Positions 5,561 through 13,272 of a DNA stretch of 20,000 nt are shown here, piece after piece. The stretch covers positions 8,722-28,721 of the forward strand of contig JAFNFQ010000047.1 of assembly GCA_017885655.1 (NCBI GenBank), written 5' to 3'. The position numbers and the translations under genes are program-made. The stretch comes from Methanobacteriota archaeon (GTDB lineage: Archaea > Thermoplasmatota > Thermoplasmata > RBG-16-68-12 > JAFNFQ01). Below the pieces are notes generated by a model. The model did no database searches. It was not told where the DNA came from and worked only from the letters and a program-made list of their open reading frames with translations. The number at the start of each line of letters is the position of its first letter. The stretch's first letter is position 1.

Positions 5561-5662
5561 GTGGAGGGTCGACGAGCAGAGTCGGCAGTGCCCCCGCTCC
5601 AAATAAGGTGCCGCCATGTGCCTACCGAATGTTTTTCTAGACGGTCTTGGCATTCCACGGGC

Positions 5663-6664
5663 GTGATCAAGCCCGCGGTTTCCCTCCCTGACTACCATTC
5701 AATCCTCCGTGGGCGGCGGCTTCCGGGATTCCTGCGCTGCGCACAGACCGGACTGCGAATCGACCTCTCCGCAGACGAACCGACGCTATGGCGGTGTCAT
5801 CGCGAGGGGATGAAGAGGCTCGATGCCGGACTGCGCGGCGACGGCCCTGTATCGTTGCTGCAGTTGAAGGCCGAGCTCGCGCGGAGACTTCTGAAGCCGT
5901 GCAGGCTCTGCGAAAGGCGGTGCAAGGTGGATAGACTGGCGGGGAAGACCGGCTACTGCGGTGTCGACAAGCCGAGGATATCGAATCGCTTCGTGCACAT
6001 GGGCGAGGAGCCCGACCTGATCCCCTCATACACGATATTCTTCTCGGGCTGCACTTTCGAGTGCCTCTTCTGCCAGAACTGGGACATTAGTCAGCGCGAG
6101 ACGGGGACGACTCTTCAGGCGGGCGCCGTGGCACGAGACATCGACGAGCACTTCGGCGATGTGAAGAACATCAACTGGGTGGGCGGCGAACCGACGCCAA
6201 ACCTGCCGTTCATCCTCGATGTTTTGACGATGGCCAAGGAGCCGACCCCGCAGATATGGAACAGCAACATGTACATGACTGAAGAGGCCATGGCTCTTCT
6301 TCACGGAGTCGCCGATGTCTACCTGGCCGATTTCAAATGGGGGCCGGGCGATTGCTCGAAGAAATATTCCAGAATCCACAATTACTGGGAAATCGTGACA
6401 CGCAATCATGTGCTCGCGAACGAGCACGCGGAGATCGTGCTGCGCCATCTGGTCATGCCGGGCCACGTAGACTGCTGCTCCCGCCCCGTCCTGGAATGGA
6501 TCGCCGGCAACCTCGATACGAGCAAGGTGATCGTGAATGTCATGGACCAGTACCGTCCCGAATACAAAGCGCCAGGAATCCCTGGCATCGATCAGAGGAT
6601 ATCGGAATCGGAGTTTTTTGAAGCTTACAAGCTCGCGAGGAATCTCGGGCTTAAGGTCACTTGA
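5663..6664 (+). CDS. radical SAM protein, PflX-like (COG1313-like)
   Basis: Contains CTFECLFCQNWDISQ (CxxxCxxC radical SAM motif), an N-terminal Cys cluster LLKPCRLCERRCKVDRLAGKTGYCGVD, and WVGGEPTPNLPFIL. The track ORF opens at 5561; GTG at 5663 (VIKPAVSLPDYHSILRGR) is a plausible alternative start. Confidence 0.85.
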   Translation: MIKPAVSLPDYHSILRGRRLPGFLRCAQTGLRIDLSADEPTLWRCHREGMKRLDAGLRGDGPVSLLQLKAELARRLLKPCRLCERRCKVDRLAGKTGYCGVDKPRISNRFVHMGEEPDLIPSYTIFFSGCTFECLFCQNWDISQRETGTTLQAGAVARDIDEHFGDVKNINWVGGEPTPNLPFILDVLTMAKEPTPQIWNSNMYMTEEAMALLHGVADVYLADFKWGPGDCSKKYSRIHNYWEIVTRNHVLANEHAEIVLRHLVMPGHVDCCSRPVLEWIAGNLDTSKVIVNVMDQYRPEYKAPGIPGIDQRISESEFFEAYKLARNLGLKVT

Positions 6665-7217
6665 CGGCCGCTTTCTTGCCGGAGGTCTTCTCAAAGAGAG
6701 CCTTGGACAGAGCCTGGAATGCCTCCTCGACGTTCTCGCCTTTCTTGGCGGAGGTGAAGAAATACGGGGCGTCGAACGCCTCCGTCGCCTGTTTGACCTC
6801 CTCCTCGCCGAATGCCGCCTTGTTCTTTAGGTCCATCTTGTTTATAGCGAACACCACGGGTATCTCGCCGACAGTCCTGAAAACCGACTCCACCCATCCA
6901 TCCAGGTCCCCGAGAGTCTCCTCGCGCGTCACATCGCAGACGGCCAGTATCCCCTGGGCCCCGTGGAAGTATGCCTCGCGGAGCAGCTCCCTGAACCCTT
7001 TCGAGCCCATTATGTCCCAAATGGTCATGTCCATGGACACTGGAGATTCGCCCTCCATGGAAATCTCGAACTCTTTCTTGGAGACCTTCGCACCGAGGGT
7101 CGTGATATACCTGTCATCGAACTCATCCAGAACGTATCTGCGGATCAGCGACGTCTTGCCGACCGCGTGCTCTCCAACCAAGCATATCTTCGACTTCATC
7201 AGTTGCGTTTCGGTCAA
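6657..7217 (-). CDS. Ras/Rab-like small GTP-binding protein
   Basis: 186 aa with G1 GEHAVGKTS, G3 WDIMG, G4 NKMD and G5 TSAK motifs. The 3' end overlaps the convergent radical SAM gene by 8 bp. Confidence 0.9.
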   Translation of the reverse strand: MTETQLMKSKICLVGEHAVGKTSLIRRYVLDEFDDRYITTLGAKVSKKEFEISMEGESPVSMDMTIWDIMGSKGFRELLREAYFHGAQGILAVCDVTREETLGDLDGWVESVFRTVGEIPVVFAINKMDLKNKAAFGEEEVKQATEAFDAPYFFTSAKKGENVEEAFQALSKALFEKTSGKKAAVK

Positions 7218-7309: not shown

Positions 7310-8353
7310 ATGACCTCCGAGTACTTAGCAATTTTGCAGTGGTTCTCTTCCGTGAATCGCGACGCGGCCAATCACCGGCCGGACTGGTCGGCCAATCGTT
7401 ATATAACGCCCCTCGAATGCAACCGCGTGGATGGCTTCGCGGCTTTCCGCTTCCTCACCGGTCTGGCTTTCCTCGGCTTCGCCTCATGCCGAGACTTGAA
7501 AACGCGCCGCGTTCCCGATGAGGTCTGGATCGTGATGGGCATCTTGGCCCTGGTTTTGCTCGAGGTCGAACTCGTCCAAGGGGGAGCCTCCTGGGAACAT
7601 CAGCTACTCCTTGTCCCGACTGCGATCATCTTTTTCGGCGTCTTCTTCGGGGAGGAGATGTGGACCGAGGAAGGATTCAGATTGAGACCCATCAGACTCC
7701 TCGTCTACGCAGTTGCAGGCCTGCTCTTGGCGTTCCTCGCGTATCATTTCTGGAGCACGAGCGGCAGCGATTCCAATGCGTTCTGGGGCCACCTGAGCAT
7801 GCCCATAATGCTCGTCCTCGCTCACGTGTTTTACCAGTTCGGGTTGCTTCGCGGCGGGGCGGATGCAAAGGCGTTCATGTCGATTGCCATCCTCGTGCCA
7901 ATCTATCCGAGCATTGGACCCGGACTACCGCTCGTCAGTCTCTCTCCGACCATCCAGCATGCCGTCGATCTGATGTTTCCTTTCGCGCTCGTCGCCCTCC
8001 TTGACGCTGCGCTCCTGCTTGTGTTCCTACCGCTGTTCTTCCTGGTATTCAATGCATTATGTGGAGACGTCAAGGGAATCCAAGCACTTTTCGGCTACCG
8101 AGTCGGCATCGACAAAGTGCCCAAGTTCGTCTGGCTGATGGACAGGGTGGAGAACGGCAAGCATCTCAGGATCCTTCTGCCTCGGAAGAGGGAGGACCGG
8201 AATGAACAGATCGCGAGGCTACGAGAGAAAGGCTTCGACCGCGTGTGGGTGACGCCGCAGATTCCATTCCTCGTGCCCATGACCTTCGGGTTTGCCGCGG
8301 CCTTCCTTGTGGGCAACTTCATCCTAGGCCTGACGCTGCTGTTCGGGCGGTGA
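7310..8353 (+). CDS. A24 family (prepilin/preflagellin) peptidase-like membrane protein
   Basis: Contains SCRDLKTRRVPDEVWIV (first catalytic Asp motif) and RGGADAKAFMSIAIL (G-x-x-D-x-K motif), with multiple hydrophobic helices. Confidence 0.75.
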   Translation: MTSEYLAILQWFSSVNRDAANHRPDWSANRYITPLECNRVDGFAAFRFLTGLAFLGFASCRDLKTRRVPDEVWIVMGILALVLLEVELVQGGASWEHQLLLVPTAIIFFGVFFGEEMWTEEGFRLRPIRLLVYAVAGLLLAFLAYHFWSTSGSDSNAFWGHLSMPIMLVLAHVFYQFGLLRGGADAKAFMSIAILVPIYPSIGPGLPLVSLSPTIQHAVDLMFPFALVALLDAALLLVFLPLFFLVFNALCGDVKGIQALFGYRVGIDKVPKFVWLMDRVENGKHLRILLPRKREDRNEQIARLREKGFDRVWVTPQIPFLVPMTFGFAAAFLVGNFILGLTLLFGR

Positions 8354-8380: not shown

Positions 8381-8388
8381 TTTTATAG
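8381..8388 (+). promoter_or_regulatory. TATA box for the 5S rRNA gene
   Basis: TTTTATAG inside AAAAAGAAGCCTTTTATAGG, about 29-36 bp upstream of the inferred 5S start. Confidence 0.6.
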
Positions 8389-8416
8389 GCCCGATGTTCT
8401 ACTTCCCGACAGCAGT

Positions 8417-8601
8417 GGTACGACGGTCAAAGCGGCGGTGATACACCCGGTCTCTTTCCGAACCCGGAAGTTAAGCCCGTCCACGTTCTCTGCTGTACTG
8501 TGGTGCGCGAGCACACGGGAAGCCTATCCCCGTAAGGGGCCTCCGGCAAGCGACCTAGGTACGCTAGCCGCCTACCCTTGTGGTAGGTGACGAAACGTAC
8601 C
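8417..8601 (+). rRNA. rrf: 5S ribosomal RNA with an apparent 3'-side insertion (3' boundary inferred)
   Basis: GGTACGACGGTCAAAGCGGCGGTGATACACCCGGTCTCTTTCCGAACCCGGAAGTTAAGCCCGTCC...TGTACTGTGGTGCGCGAGCACACGGGAAG matches the archaeal (Thermoplasma-like) 5S core. The terminal helix candidate is GGTACG 8417-8422 / CGTACC 8596-8601. Confidence 0.8.
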
Positions 8602-8604
8602 GCT

Positions 8605-11600
8605 TTAACGGCCGTTTGTCGCTGGAACGCTGTCGGCCACTGCCTCGCTCTTCTTTCTTTTTCTGCTGAGGAACCTCTGGCCCGCGAAGATGAACATGGG
8701 TATCGCGATCGGGATGATCACGTCCTGGAATTCAGGGATGATCACGGTTGCCGACGCCTTGCTTTCCGCCAATTTATACCCACTCTGCGAAGTGTAGTTC
8801 AGGAACACCCAGTTCACCAGTATCGAGTTCTGTGCAGGGTTCTTGATCCGCACCGTGATCGTGAAGCTGTGCGCGCCCGGACCCACGTTCGCGAAAATCC
8901 AACGGTACGTCTGACCGCTCCACGAAGAAGGCGCGACGCTCGCTCCGAGATACGTCACGTCGGTCGGCAGCGTGTCGTTGATCCACACCCTCAGGGCGTT
9001 GGCGCTGCCCGTGTTGTTGAAATAGATCGTGTAGGTGACGATCGCACCCGGGACCGTCACAGATGGCGATGCAGTTTTCTCAACCTTGATTGTCGGCCTC
9101 CGGCACGTGAAGTTCGCCCACGAAACGCTGCGCTCCATCCATCTGCCAAGCTGATCCGTGTAGTTGCCGAAGGCCGTGTTCACTTGGAGGATGCTGTCCT
9201 GGGCATTTGCGTTCACCTGAGCGATAATCGTGAACGACCTTAGGGCTCCAGCAGGGACATTGGCGAATCTCCACCTGTAGGTGTTCCCGCTCGAGGAAAA
9301 CGGCGGGACGCTGCTGGAGTGGTAATTCACTCCGGCGGGGAGGGTATCGTTAATCCAAACCACCCTCGACACTGCATCGCCCGTGTTGTTGTAGTAGACG
9401 GTGTATTGGACGTAGTCGCCCGGACCAGCGATCAACACATTCAGCGTCTTCACGACCCTGATGATTGGGCGATATCTGTCGTTGGGCCCACCTCTGGTCG
9501 GAATGCGGGACACATACCAATCTGAATTCGCATCCGTGTCGACTGGTTTGCCGTCGCTCGCCGCTTTGAATCGGGCCCAAGTCTGCGTCGTGCTGATCGA
9601 GGGATATGTAGTCGCATCGACGATCGTGTTGGCTGAATCCCTAAGGATAATGTCGCCGTTGGAACCTGGGAGGTCACCTGAGGGAACATTGACCGTGAGA
9701 TACTCGGCGCCGCTCAACCACGATCCGACAATCTCCGTCGTGAATGTGTAGATTGTGATGTACTTGTTCCCTTTGATGATCTGCAGTCTCCACCCACTGA
9801 GAGCGACCGGAGAGGATGTGGGGTTCGCGAGTTCCACCCACGCAGCTCCTTTTTGAGGATATATCTCGTTGATGACAACGTTGTCACCAGCAGGGGATCG
9901 CACGCCGTATCTCCCTCCCCTCGTGAGGAGAGGTGAGACTGAGTCGGTGTCGCGCAACCAGTCGGTCATGTAGACGATGACCCTGAAACCTGGCACGAGG
10001 CCGAACACGGTGGCATTCGCCGCCATCTCCAACCTGCCAGAGTCGATGGCAGCCGCGACATTTCCCATCCATTCGAACGGCACATTCGCGTTCGGGCGGT
10101 ACCTGAAAAGGCTCGCGTTGTTGAGCTGCCCCTGGCGTCCGTTAGCCACGAGCGCATAGTCGACACCATAGACCTGGCCTTCGATCTCCGTGTAGAGACC
10201 TGTCGCAGTGCTGTTGTCCGCGTCGACGTACGCAAATGCCGTGTCCATGCCGGTGGGGACGTTGTAGGAGAAAGGCCCCACGTATCGCGACACAATCCTC
10301 CCTGCGTAGGGAGCTGGGAAATAGCTAGGGATCGTCGCGTTGAGCCAGAAGTCCGAGCCTGCGGGATAATCGAGAACGCCGTCCGCGTCAACATCGCCAT
10401 TCGATTGACTGTCAGGGGTTCCGTCGTTGTTGAAGTCGTCCGGAAGAGAATCCATTGAGTCGGGCACCGTGTCCCCATCTGCATCCGTGAATTGCGCTGG
10501 AATCGGCCTTTCTCTGAGATTGGGTAGGTCCTCACCGCCAAGCATCCGACCCTGAACCTTCATGTAGAAAGCGAAATCGGCAGTGACATTCAGCCCGACC
10601 TCCGCGATGTCGACGTTCGTGTTGATCGATTCCAGGCCTCCGGAGGAGCGCACATCCCATAGTCCGTCCCTTTGAACCTTCGCCGCGTCCCAGTCCCCAA
10701 ACACCCCATCGATCGTCACCTTGGGCGCTTGGCGGTAGTAGGTCCCCGAGATAATCGAGTCCCTGAGATCCACGAGTGAGTTTGTGGATATGGCAGAGAC
10801 CTTCAGCGTCAGCGAGCTCGCATCCGGGGCGGTTGAGAGGTGCGCAACCACGAAGAGCGAGACGCTCTCCCCCTCTCTGATCGTCAGGTCGACTCCGAGA
10901 CTGCCGATCCCAGAGATGAACGAGGATGTGTTGAGCAGCGTGTCAGCAGGCTCGTACGTCCCATCGTTGTCGTCAAGATGAAGGCTCAGCACCACGGACT
11001 GGTCGGGCATCGAACCCTGCTTGGTGACGTTGACGGCATGGATTGTGCTCGAACCTGCCTCGGCCCGCAGGCGCACATAGAGGAAAGCCTGATCGTCAAC
11101 CATCATGATGTCGCTCACGAGAGTCCTCTGGGTCACTGCGAGCGTGGAATATGCCACACATGCGACGTCATCCGCGATGTCGATCACTCCCGTGGTGTTC
11201 GCAGTCAGAACGATGATATGGGCCTCGCTTGGTTCGGCCAACGGCATCATGAACTCGAGCATGCCTCCTGAAGCCGCTGCCGAGATCGCATCTCTGTGCG
11301 AGAACGCAGAGAGATTGTTCTGACCCCCGCCAAGCCCCGGATTCCAGTCCGAGACTCTCGAACCCGCCATCTTCCCATCATAGCCGCTGATCAGAACTTC
11401 CATATCGGCACCTATGCCGCCTATCGAATATCCGGTGGACGGTCGCCCGTCCGCGTCCACCATGATCAGGACATAGTCAATGAGGTCCGGCGCGGCGGGA
11501 GCACTCGGTGTGTCGAACATGACTCCATCGACCTCGACATAGACGGCGAGCTGCCCATCCTGCGAGGAGACCTTCGTGGATACGAGATCCAGGTCAGAGC

Positions 11601-13272
11601 GGTAGGAGACATTGGCTCCCCTCGTGTCCCCGACCGGGTCGTCATGCGGCGGGATTCCTGCCCAGTCTGAGAAGCTGCCATCGACTGTCAGGACTGTCGT
11701 TTTGGGCCCGCTTGGGATCAGAGTCGCTATCACCGGTGCAAGGAGGAGAATCGCGATTATGGCAGCGACTACGCCTGCGGACCTGAACCAGCCTCGTTCC
11801 GCACGGTAGATCGGCTGGAACCTGCCGCGCCTTCCGTTGGTGAAGCCGTTTCCGTTCACAAGGCCGTTCACATGGCCTATGCCGTTGACGAGACCGTTCA
11901 CCCTTCCCAAGCCGTTGACCAGGCCGTTGGTCCTCCCGATACCGTTGACAAGGCCATTCGTCCTGCCGAGACCGTTGACTAGGCCGTTTGTCCGACCGAT
12001 GCCGTTGACTAGACCGTTGGTTCTCCCGATCCCGTTTACGAGACCGTTGACGCGCCCTTCCCTCGGCGTACCTTTTGCGCGGGGAACGCCGACCGTCCTC
12101 AGACCTTCGAGGGCTTTCCGCTCGCCCTCCATCTTCATGCGGCGGACGTCTTTGGCGCGCGCCCTCGATGTGTCAGCCTCCTCGTTCCTGCCAAGCCTCT
12201 GCAAGAGCTCCGCCCTCGTCTCCCACGCGACATCGAGCCTCGAATCCGATCGAAGGAGGCGCTCGTAGTAGCTGAGCGCTTTCTGGATCGCCGATATCTC
12301 CGCGGCAGGTTTCTCCGGCGGCGCCATCGCCGACCATCGTGGCGGTATCAAGGACGAGTCGGCCAAGGTCTCGGCCAGGTTCAGGACCTGCAGTCTGTAC
12401 TCCTCATCCCTGGCGGGATTGATCTTCGCTGCCCTCTCGAGGCATTGCGCCGCCTCCTTGGGCCGCCCGAGCTCGCGGAGAACGTGCGACTTCAGTACCC
12501 AAGCCCTTTCGAGCTTCGGGTCAACTTCCAGCAGTTCGTCGTAGTGTCTCAACTCCTCGCCGAGCTGGTCCTCTCTTGTCGGGGTCTTCTCGGCGACCCT
12601 CTGCCAGCGGGCGAGGAAGTCTTGGGAAACGCCTTTGCTTTCCTTGATCTCTGGGGCCTGGATTCCCCCAGGAACGATTTCCTCGGCGGATGAATAGCCG
12701 CAGATACCGCATCTCTCTGCCCCGGGAGCGAGGAAGGCTCCGCAATGGGGGCAGACCTTGACCTCCTCCTTCTCAACCTGTGTGACGACTTCCCTGGGGA
12801 GCTCCTCCTCCACCGCCTCAGCCCCTTCGATCACCTGATGGCATGTGGGACAACTTTCGGCATCCTTGGACAGGAATGCGCCGCAATTGGAGCAAATGTA
12901 GAGCTCGGGCTGCTCGGAGACCTCCTTGGCGGGTTCAGCCGCTGGAGCAGGCGCCGCTTCCTCTTCCTCTTCGAACTCTGTGCCGCATTGAGGGCAGGTC
13001 TTCGAGCCTGCGCTGGCGAATGCACCGCAGGATGGACAGATGAAGAATTCCGACTTCTTGGAATACCAACTGTCGCCTATGGAGAGGGACTCGGAGGCCT
13101 TCGCCCTCACCAAGGCGGCCTCCTCCAAGGAGAGCCCGCATGATTCCGCGATCGCCTCCGGAGTGGCATCGGCAAGGTCATCGATCCGAGGGTACCTTGC
13201 GCGGACTCTCGCCGCCTCCTCGCGGTCGAGGTCGCAGGTCGTTAGTAGCCACTCTTCGTACAGCTCATCCAT
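8605..13272 (-). CDS. giant membrane-anchored multidomain protein: N-terminal helix-hairpin-helix-like segment, three zinc ribbons, TPR-like repeats, Gly/Asn-rich decapeptide repeats, TM, outer domains with Ca-binding-like, lamin-tail-like and two DUF11-like segments, C-terminal TM
   Basis: 1555-aa ORF. Zinc ribbons CPSCGAF..CPQCG, CSNCGAF..CPTC and CPHCGAF..CGICG. TM-like AGVVAAIIAILLLAPVIATLI. DVDADGVLDYP-type Asp repeats. VVINEIYPQKGAAWVELANPTSSPVALSGW (lamin-tail-like). YTVYYNNTGDAVSRVVWINDTLPAGVNY and YTIYFNNTGSANALRVWINDTLPTDVTY (DUF11-like). C-terminal IPIAIPMFIFAGQRFLSRKRKK. Confidence 0.85.
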   Translation of the reverse strand: MDELYEEWLLTTCDLDREEAARVRARYPRIDDLADATPEAIAESCGLSLEEAALVRAKASESLSIGDSWYSKKSEFFICPSCGAFASAGSKTCPQCGTEFEEEEEAAPAPAAEPAKEVSEQPELYICSNCGAFLSKDAESCPTCHQVIEGAEAVEEELPREVVTQVEKEEVKVCPHCGAFLAPGAERCGICGYSSAEEIVPGGIQAPEIKESKGVSQDFLARWQRVAEKTPTREDQLGEELRHYDELLEVDPKLERAWVLKSHVLRELGRPKEAAQCLERAAKINPARDEEYRLQVLNLAETLADSSLIPPRWSAMAPPEKPAAEISAIQKALSYYERLLRSDSRLDVAWETRAELLQRLGRNEEADTSRARAKDVRRMKMEGERKALEGLRTVGVPRAKGTPREGRVNGLVNGIGRTNGLVNGIGRTNGLVNGLGRTNGLVNGIGRTNGLVNGLGRVNGLVNGIGHVNGLVNGNGFTNGRRGRFQPIYRAERGWFRSAGVVAAIIAILLLAPVIATLIPSGPKTTVLTVDGSFSDWAGIPPHDDPVGDTRGANVSYRSDLDLVSTKVSSQDGQLAVYVEVDGVMFDTPSAPAAPDLIDYVLIMVDADGRPSTGYSIGGIGADMEVLISGYDGKMAGSRVSDWNPGLGGGQNNLSAFSHRDAISAAASGGMLEFMMPLAEPSEAHIIVLTANTTGVIDIADDVACVAYSTLAVTQRTLVSDIMMVDDQAFLYVRLRAEAGSSTIHAVNVTKQGSMPDQSVVLSLHLDDNDGTYEPADTLLNTSSFISGIGSLGVDLTIREGESVSLFVVAHLSTAPDASSLTLKVSAISTNSLVDLRDSIISGTYYRQAPKVTIDGVFGDWDAAKVQRDGLWDVRSSGGLESINTNVDIAEVGLNVTADFAFYMKVQGRMLGGEDLPNLRERPIPAQFTDADGDTVPDSMDSLPDDFNNDGTPDSQSNGDVDADGVLDYPAGSDFWLNATIPSYFPAPYAGRIVSRYVGPFSYNVPTGMDTAFAYVDADNSTATGLYTEIEGQVYGVDYALVANGRQGQLNNASLFRYRPNANVPFEWMGNVAAAIDSGRLEMAANATVFGLVPGFRVIVYMTDWLRDTDSVSPLLTRGGRYGVRSPAGDNVVINEIYPQKGAAWVELANPTSSPVALSGWRLQIIKGNKYITIYTFTTEIVGSWLSGAEYLTVNVPSGDLPGSNGDIILRDSANTIVDATTYPSISTTQTWARFKAASDGKPVDTDANSDWYVSRIPTRGGPNDRYRPIIRVVKTLNVLIAGPGDYVQYTVYYNNTGDAVSRVVWINDTLPAGVNYHSSSVPPFSSSGNTYRWRFANVPAGALRSFTIIAQVNANAQDSILQVNTAFGNYTDQLGRWMERSVSWANFTCRRPTIKVEKTASPSVTVPGAIVTYTIYFNNTGSANALRVWINDTLPTDVTYLGASVAPSSWSGQTYRWIFANVGPGAHSFTITVRIKNPAQNSILVNWVFLNYTSQSGYKLAESKASATVIIPEFQDVIIPIAIPMFIFAGQRFLSRKRKKSEAVADSVPATNGR
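11839..12048 (-). repeat. in-frame tandem repeat, 30-bp unit, 7 copies, encoding NGLVNG(I/L)GRT
   Basis: The protein segment reads NGLVNGIGRT NGLVNGIGRT NGLVNGLGRT NGLVNGIGRT NGLVNGLGRV NGLVNGIGHV NGLVNGNGFT. The DNA shows CCGTTGACNAGRCCGTTNGTCC-like units every 30 bp. Confidence 0.95.

Follow-up and report, generated by a model that had tools for sequence, protein, structure and literature searches.

Expansion segments of archaeal 5S ribosomal RNA (rRNA) have been listed solely in Halobacteriales (Stepanov and Fox, PMC7812874). The Halococcus-type segment is found in Halococcus morrhuae and also in Halalkalicoccus, Halomarina, and Halodesulfurarchaeum (PMC7812874; PMC7530397). It occupies a single site (104.1-105, adjoining loop E), is 108 nt long (Luehrsen et al. 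1981, as cited in PMC7812874), and forms an asymmetric V, one side of which is a short hairpin and the other a long unbranched arm (PMC7812874). The mature 5S rRNA of H. morrhuae retains the insertion and measures 231 nt, and a four-way junction is visible by cryo-electron microscopy (PMC7812874; PMC7530397). The haloarchaeal distribution is patchy, and the published survey already invoked transfer (PMC7812874). Thermoplasma is mentioned in neither PMC7812874 nor PMC7530397, and no report of an expanded 5S rRNA in Thermoplasmata was found in the literature searched. Here, we analyzed a stretch of 20,000 nt (GCA_017885655.1, contig JAFNFQ010000047.1, positions 8,722-28,721 of the forward strand; hereafter, the window). 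Its positions 8412-8643 on the plus strand are read, with a probability of roughly 0.8, as a free-standing 5S rRNA gene of ~230 nt with a self-folding, Halococcus-like expansion segment of 98 nt that would be retained in the mature RNA.

The 5S rRNA gene was the only RNA gene that an Rfam scan of the 20-kb window returned, and neither transfer RNA (tRNA) genes nor other rRNA genes were detected there. Its limits (229-232 nt, each end accurate to about 3 nt) were set by the Rfam match on the 5' 105 nt, the closure of helix I, and the minimum free energy (MFE) fold. The Rfam model RF00001 matched positions 8419-8538 (+) with 64.7 bits (gathering score 38; E = 8e-12). The alignment was excellent up to GGGAAG (8517-8522), and the 5S signatures CCGAACCCGGAAGUUAAGCC and GUACUG...GCGA...GGGAAG were aligned at high posterior probability. 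The conserved core (8428-8523, +) comprises loop A, helices II-III, loop C, the helix V 5' strand (8485-8493), loop E and helix IV (GUACUG...GCGA...GGGAAG), and the distal helix V pairs 8492-8523 and 8493-8522, as delineated by the Rfam and RNAalifold analyses. Beyond GGGAAG, the 3' strands of helices V and I were forced onto CCUAUCCCCGUAAGGG, where most pairs were flagged as non-standard. Since both helices are mispaired at the forced 3' end (8538), the normal 3' strands are truly missing from this place. The match was nevertheless marked as non-truncated (model positions 1-120), even though it ends within the first hairpin of the insertion; the insertion is beyond what the model can span, and the 3' end that it reports is therefore wrong. 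An ordinary 5S rRNA stopping near 8540 was ruled out both by these mispaired strands and by the fold of 8417-8540 (z = +0.38).

The normal 3' end of the gene, UGGAACG-CUGUCGGCCACUGC, is instead located at 8623-8643, which places the canonical sequence GGAACG-CUGUCGGCC 98 nt beyond its position in unexpanded relatives. The helix I 5' strand GCAGUGGUACGACGGU (8412-8427, +) pairs with the 3' strand GCUGUCGGCCACUGC (8629-8643, +) to form 16 bp with one bulged A, with comparative and MFE support. Immediately 5' of the latter strand, GGAAC (8624-8628, +) provides the proximal 3' strand of helix V, which pairs with GUUCU (8485-8489) and is the positional homologue of the GGAAC or GGAAA found directly 5' of the helix I 3' strand in unexpanded relatives. 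The MFE of 8412-8643 is -100.2 kcal/mol (z = -2.73), and the fold recovers the comparative structure of helix I and the insertion.

Relatives were gathered with the pattern GTACTG-N5-CGCGAG-N5-GGGAAG, which covers helix IV and loop E, using one genome per species; it matched at least 120 stretches, and all locus counts are lower bounds. In 45 matches from Methanomassiliicoccaceae, Thermoplasmatales, Methanomicrobia, and other groups, the helix I 3' strand (the complement of the 5' core YGACGG) starts 8-9 nt past GGGAAG, that is, these genes have ordinary 3' ends. In the window and at least 46 other loci, it starts 104-122 nt past GGGAAG. These 46 or more further 5S genes belong to different species of metagenome-assembled genomes (MAGs) of Thermoplasmata lineages, including Ca. 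Saliniplasma, Ca. Sysuiplasma, UBA10834, and RBG_16_67_27; they have 95-113 nt of extra sequence at the same site and a total length of ~229-244 nt. Most of them come from non-hypersaline MAGs or non-saline habitats. A normal helix V strand (GGAAC, GGAAA, or GGUAA) immediately 5' of the helix I 3' strand was present in every expanded gene.

Comparison of the two groups defines the insertion site: unexpanded relatives read GGGAAG-C-UC-GGAAC-G-CUGUCAGCC, whereas the window reads GGGAAG-C-[100 nt]-GGAAC. The segment (8524-8623, +) thus interrupts helix V on its 3' strand, within the small internal loop that separates loop E from the three-helix junction. Two of its 100 nt correspond to internal-loop residues of the unexpanded 5S rRNA, which leaves a net gain of 98 nt. 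Two alignments were used for the comparative analysis: A1, a MAFFT alignment of 47 distinct expanded 5S genes (46 relatives and the window) folded with RNAalifold, and A4, in which 46 insertions were realigned to an insertion-only covariance model. As A4 is fitted to the model, A1 constitutes the independent evidence. In A1, 93.5% of the cells of the proposed structure are paired, compared with 78.6% in column shuffles (none of 500 shuffles reached the observed value) and 31-51% when partners were slid by 1-3 columns, and 23 of the 35 pairs change on both sides. The corresponding values in A4 are 90.3% paired versus 65.2% in shuffles, with double-sided changes in 30 of 32 pairs.

The gene's closing elements are maintained across the 47 sequences of A1. 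Helix I (columns 4-13 / 254-262) is 98.1% paired, with double-sided changes at pairs 5-261 (GC/AU) and 8-259 (UA/CG) in seven sequences each and at 4-262 (GC/AU) in three. The proximal part of helix V (columns 72-76 / 248-252) is 86% paired, and its distal columns 79-111 and 80-110 covary (GC in 39 sequences and CG in six).

The insertion itself folds into a short hairpin followed by a long arm. The short hairpin (hairpin A, 8528-8539, +), CCCC-GUAA-GGGG, forms the short arm of a V; columns 115-119 / 128-132 are 96.9% paired, and all five pairs change on both sides. The base of the long arm, P1, is formed by CGGCAAGCGACC (8544-8555, +) and GGCCGUUUGUCG (8610-8621, +). Columns 136-141 / 240-245 all show double-sided changes, the upper part of P1 covaries in A4, and the helix is also present in the MFE fold. 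The next element is an asymmetric internal loop, J1, with UA (8556-8557, +) on its 5' side and the eight nucleotides GCUUUAAC (8602-8609, +) on its 3' side; three relatives (L029, L113, and L062) have GUUGAC on the latter. The 6-bp helix P2 pairs GGUACG (8558-8563, +) with CGUACC (8596-8601, +), and its columns 150-155 / 217-223 are 96.8% paired, five of the six pairs changing on both sides. A second internal loop, J2, consists of CUA (8564-8566, +), unpaired in the MFE fold and followed by G8567, which pairs with C8591, and of GAAA (8592-8595, +); the CUAG on its 5' side is conserved in most lineages. The arm, unbranched throughout, is capped by the distal hairpin P3 (8567-8591, +), in which a G-C pair and a C.A mismatch precede CGCCUACC-CUUGU-GGUAGGUG in the MFE fold. 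RNAalifold predicted P3 from A1 at its base only, and in A4 (columns 53-62 / 86-97), eight of its nine pairs have double-sided changes. When folded alone, segment 8524-8623 (MFE -41.4 kcal/mol, z = -2.75) yields hairpin A, P1, P2, and P3 as in the comparative structure.

The helices of the insertion vary freely, and the positions that never change are unpaired junction bases, namely G8602 and A8608 in J1 and A8593 in J2; A8557, A8607, and A8594 are at least 90% conserved in A1. Invariant purines in the junctions, flanked by helices that covary freely, suggest that J1 and J2 would form a specific tertiary or partner-binding motif, and the strict conservation of a few unpaired residues in this setting points to a function as read from the sequences. 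With respect to known motifs, both loops were inspected by eye. By this inspection, neither a kink-turn nor a classical loop E (AGUA/GAA) is proposed: tandem GA is absent from the clade of the window and the kink-turn consensus was not matched, and CUAG/YGAAM has a resemblance to loop E. An Rfam search of 8400-8660 at a permissive threshold returned, beyond the 5S rRNA, just a meaningless 12-nt match of the GUAA hairpin to a CRISPR repeat model.

The first-pass annotation of this DNA had drawn the gene differently, as a 5S rRNA of 185 nt (8417-8601) with an insertion of 60-65 nt composed of three consecutive hairpins and closed by pairing of 8417-8422 with 8596-8601. Much of its description agrees with the results above: the sequence elements it quoted are all found where it placed them, the 5S core is real and conserved through GGGAAG, the 3' strands of helices V and I are absent at the usual distance, and a large structured insertion does lie in the helix V 3' strand next to loop E, with H. 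morrhuae as the precedent it had named and, as it had suspected, with no description for this lineage in the literature searched. Its first hairpin (8528-8539; 97.8% of cells paired, double-sided changes in all four pairs) and its third (CCTACC/GGTAGG, 8571-8587), which is the core of P3 and covaries in A4, were also recovered. Its second hairpin (8544-8552 / 8562-8570) failed, being paired in only 51% of cells in the 47 sequences.

The proposed closing helix is a true 6-bp complementarity in the window, is used by the MFE structure of 8417-8601 (-73.4 kcal/mol), and could pair in 80% of cells across relatives. Nevertheless, this fold is not unusual (z = -1.76), and the helix barely covaries as a closing helix: only two of its six pairs show any double-sided change, and 28 of 47 sequences do not form pair 8420-8598. 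Strand 8596-8601 covaries with 8558-8563 instead, and the apparent closing helix arose because GGUACG occurs twice in the window (at 8417 and 8558). The pairing of GACGAA with TTCTC, offered as helix V, connects two segments that are both conserved and has no support from homology with unexpanded 5S rRNA. Pair counts alone are not decisive here (88% versus 86%), and the pairing was rejected because 8589-8594 lie in P3 and J2 and GGAAC at 8624-8628 is the helix V homologue. Moreover, a T-rich terminator tract is missing directly after 8601, where the first run of at least four T begins only at 8658, and the canonical 3' strands of helices V and I are found downstream at 8624-8643, as in all relatives. 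Among these relatives, P1, P2, the helix V strand 8624-8628, and helix I 8629-8643 take the place of the earlier pairings, and all three sizes proved too small: the gene ends at ~8643 (42 nt farther), the insertion is 98 nt, and the total is ~230 nt. We therefore regard the 185-nt model as practically untenable.

Two sequence resemblances within the gene are recorded here as separate observations. The segment 8591-8597, which covers the 3' side of J2 and the first bases of P2, reads CGAAACG in the window and UGAACCG in most relatives. It is similar to the core helix V strand GGAACG (8624-8629) and is able to pair with the helix V 5' strand GUUCU in 88% of cells, which explains the apparent plausibility of the earlier helix V proposal; it may have arisen by duplication or reflect a competing conformer. 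In addition, ACGACGGTCAAAGCGG (8420-8435: the 3' part of helix I, loop A, and the start of helix II) is 81% complementary to CCGCTTTAACGGCCGT (8600-8615: the end of P2, J1, and the start of P1). This complementarity is similar in the closest clade (L041) and, by eye, is not found in the other lineages, and it could reflect an alternative or folding-intermediate pairing, or chance.

Signals consistent with independent transcription flank the gene. A TATA-box-like element, TTTTATAG (8381-8388, +), lies ~27 nt before helix I begins and is a putative promoter, and A/T-rich TATA-like boxes occur at about the same upstream distance in nearly all of the 46 related expanded 5S genes. Downstream, the T-rich tract CTTCTTTCTTTTTCT (8650-8664, +) is a likely terminator as judged from its composition; runs of four or more T are absent between 8540 and 8643, and in most of the expanded relatives the extended 3' end is likewise followed by a pyrimidine- or T-rich tract.

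The apparent damage at the 3' end of the Rfam alignment could also be explained if this 5S copy were degenerate, a pseudogene, or an artefact of assembly and the working 5S gene lay elsewhere in the genome. Against this, at least 46 MAG species, each assembled independently, share the architecture and show compensatory changes in every helix. The core is also intact, and the predicted promoter and terminator signals are conserved. In Ca. Sysuiplasma superficiale, both 5S copies found (L010 and L017) are expanded. The window is also 97.3% identical over 6.4 kb to contig JBGPQV010000002.1 of another Thermoplasmata MAG (L057), and the two 5S genes differ at just 2 of 229 positions. We consider such a defective copy very improbable.

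We then compared the segment with its haloarchaeal counterparts. A gapped pattern scan of metagenomes returned nine haloarchaeal expanded 5S genes with seven distinct insertions of two sequence types, eight of the nine being complete at both ends; Halococcus 5S rRNA was also sought in a plasmid collection, in which only ordinary haloarchaeal and bacterial 5S fragments were present. The haloarchaeal genes read GGGAAA-[111-114 nt, including ~3 nt of normal linker]-GGUUCGCC. The insertion site is the same in both groups, in the helix V 3' strand between loop E and the three-helix junction (GGGAAR and 1-4 nt, then GG(A/U)(A/U)C), and the sizes are similar (95-113 nt in Thermoplasmata versus 108 nt; total length ~230 versus 231 nt). 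Both form an asymmetric V, with a short tetraloop hairpin preceding a long unbranched arm, and share the order of hairpin A, P1, the 2-nt/8-nt internal loop, and the 6-bp P2. Hairpin A is CCCC-GUAA-GGGG in the window and UCUC-GCAA-GAGA or CCUGGC-UUCG-GCCGGG in haloarchaea, and P2 is GGUACG / CGUACC in the window and GGAUGG / CCGUCC or GGGGCG / CGUCCU in haloarchaea. On the 5' side of J1, UA in the window corresponds to CA or GA, and on its 3' side GCUUUAAC corresponds to GUUACAAC or GUCGAC, so that the junction residues NA and G...AC are shared.

There are also clear differences. The Thermoplasmata segment belongs to another phylum (Thermoplasmatota) and mostly to non-hypersaline MAGs, its sequence similarity to the haloarchaeal segment is weak, and it is known from genes alone, whereas retention has been demonstrated for H. 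morrhuae. The haloarchaeal distal arm is longer, with an extra helix and AGUAC...GGGAAC, whereas the Thermoplasmata arm has CUAG / YGAAM directly after P2. In this haloarchaeal arm (L122:569-682, L124:10093-10203, and similar metagenome loci), AAGUAC...GGGAAC matches the core loop E / helix IV signature (AGUACUGG...CUGGGAAA), which suggests a second loop E-like motif or a partial duplication of the loop E / helix IV arm. A covariance model (R2) was trained on 46 Thermoplasmata insertions, those of the window and of 45 related loci, and its E-values come from a shortened, rough calibration. It matched all eight complete haloarchaeal insertions end to end at a weak 9.8-13.4 bits. The E-values were 1-7 in 98 kb with a similar-scoring background, and 0.003 and 0.011 within 281-nt gene regions, for which the location was known beforehand and the calibration is rough. 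A narrower model (R1, eight seeds) did not detect the haloarchaeal insertions. Altogether, the Thermoplasmata segment is the same kind of expansion segment as the haloarchaeal one, and the two are probably, though not demonstrably, homologous.

In the proposed mechanism, the gene would be transcribed from its own TATA promoter, with transcription ending at the T-rich tract. The segment would fold by itself into the V, with its short GNRA-capped hairpin and the long arm P1-P2-P3, and convert the insertion point into a four-way junction that leaves the canonical 5S core intact. By analogy with H. morrhuae, it would then stay in the mature RNA and project into the solvent from the central protuberance; we infer this retention from the same site, similar size, and same V shape of the H. 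morrhuae insertion. Three points weigh against our reading of the gene. Retention would hold by analogy with H. morrhuae; the R2 matches to haloarchaeal insertions are weak against a similar background, which makes the Halococcus homology suggestive; and the visible part of the genome is 20 kb, so that further 5S copies are possible.

The same analogy bears on the alternative that the 98-nt module is an intervening sequence removed after transcription, either by splicing, which would give a 5S rRNA of ~122 nt, or by cutting without ligation, which would leave two pieces held together by helices I and V. Stepanov and Fox cautioned that insertions known from genes only might be removed in the manner of rRNA introns or intervening sequences (PMC7812874), and a self-contained folded domain at a junction, whose removal would leave a functional core, fits such a process. 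Splicing by the archaeal endonuclease is unlikely because no enrichment of bulge-helix-bulge structures was observed across the junctions: a strict motif (two 3-nt bulges and a 4-bp helix) was present in one of the 47 sequences compared with 3.8% of shuffles, and a relaxed one in 25 (53%) compared with 66% of shuffles, the window having none. A group I or II intron would be larger than these 98 nt. A retained functional domain would fit the invariant purines of the junctions and a structure maintained across many lineages, and in H. morrhuae the insertion at this site does remain in the mature 5S rRNA. Removal after transcription thus appears unlikely, and a retained expansion segment is the reading we prefer.

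A broader proposal, which we advance tentatively and consider somewhat less probable than its opposite, is that the Thermoplasmata and haloarchaeal segments are one module, shared by descent or by horizontal transfer with a few haloarchaeal genera and kept in the mature ribosome, where its two invariant loops may dock a protein or rRNA partner on the central protuberance. If so, an expanded 5S rRNA would be what whole orders of uncultured archaea normally possess, and not a halophile curiosity. Large archaeal 5S insertions were previously thought to be limited to four haloarchaeal genera (PMC7812874) and are now found in at least 46 species-level MAGs of several uncultured Thermoplasmata lineages. 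Their occurrence across many mostly non-saline MAGs indicates that the module is neither rare nor tied to high salt, and raises the evolutionary question of common ancestry versus transfer between Thermoplasmata and haloarchaea. Furthermore, as the standard 5S model returns a complete-looking but wrong gene of 120 nt (8419-8538), the 5S genes of these genomes are probably mis-annotated as a rule.

As for the genomic context, the upstream neighbour of the 5S gene encodes an archaeal A24 peptidase (7310-8353, +), and the downstream neighbour is the 3' end of a 1555-residue surface-protein open reading frame (ORF; 8605-13272, -) whose product contains zinc ribbons, TPR, LTD, and DUF11. The final 13 codons of this ORF overlap the 3' end of the 5S gene (8605-8643) on the opposite strand, and its basic tail, RKRKK, is specified by DNA opposite the T-rich tract; this extension of the C-terminus may be simple read-through to the first stop codon within the 5S gene. 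The same ORF contains tandem nine-residue repeats (GRTNGLVNG and variants) at ~11850-12060 (-), and the two BLAST segments against the 97%-identical L057 overlap exactly there, which suggests that the repeat copy number differs between the two genomes. Further upstream of the peptidase and 5S genes are a Ras/Roc-family small GTPase gene (6657-7217, -; Pfam Ras, E = 6.5e-34) and a radical SAM enzyme gene (5561-6664, +), which represent ordinary context with no evident connection to the 5S gene.

A different kind of unusual 5S gene was observed on a single contig (L100:221-363, JAEOUE010000244.1) of the Asgard MAG Candidatus Hodarchaeum mangrovi, where the gene appears to be circularly permuted. 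In it, the 3' part (GUUAAG... through the helix I 3' strand, ~236-303) precedes the 5' part (the helix I 5' strand through ...CCGAAACCAGAA, ~307-354), with a 3-nt linker, AUU, in between. In the flanks, a 9-bp stem (GAGAUUCUG/CAGAAUCUC) and a 4-bp helix (CUGG/CCAG) with the 3-nt bulges ACG and AAA give an arrangement resembling a bulge-helix-bulge. Cutting after the second bulge base on each strand, followed by ligation, is predicted to produce the canonical junction of loop C, CCAGAA|GUUAAG. When un-permuted, the sequence is collinear with normal archaeal 5S rRNA, and Rfam gave no 5S match to this gene in its genomic order. In the literature searched, permuted 5S genes were found for organelles only (PMC4267664).

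Beyond the Halococcus type, the expansion segment described here may be compared with three known systems. Bacterial 5S expansion segments (Thermoanaerobacterium and other Firmicutes; PMC7812874) are likewise self-folding extra helices within an intact core that standard annotation has overlooked; they differ in using other sites (the helix III bulge, helix IV, and others) and other structures, in often occurring alongside normal copies, and in that some have been judged sterically incompatible with the ribosome. Archaeal bulge-helix-bulge introns of rRNA and tRNA genes are also insertions of ~100 nt in genes for stable RNAs, whereas the present segment has no conserved motif at its junctions and forms a four-way junction with a hairpin right after the 5' boundary. 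Finally, the expansion segments of large-subunit rRNA in eukaryotes and Asgard archaea (PMC7594248) are, like this one, lineage-specific helical outgrowths that leave the parent helix intact. Those, however, are located in 23S/28S rRNA, whereas the segment in the window lies in the 5S rRNA and nearly doubles the molecule.

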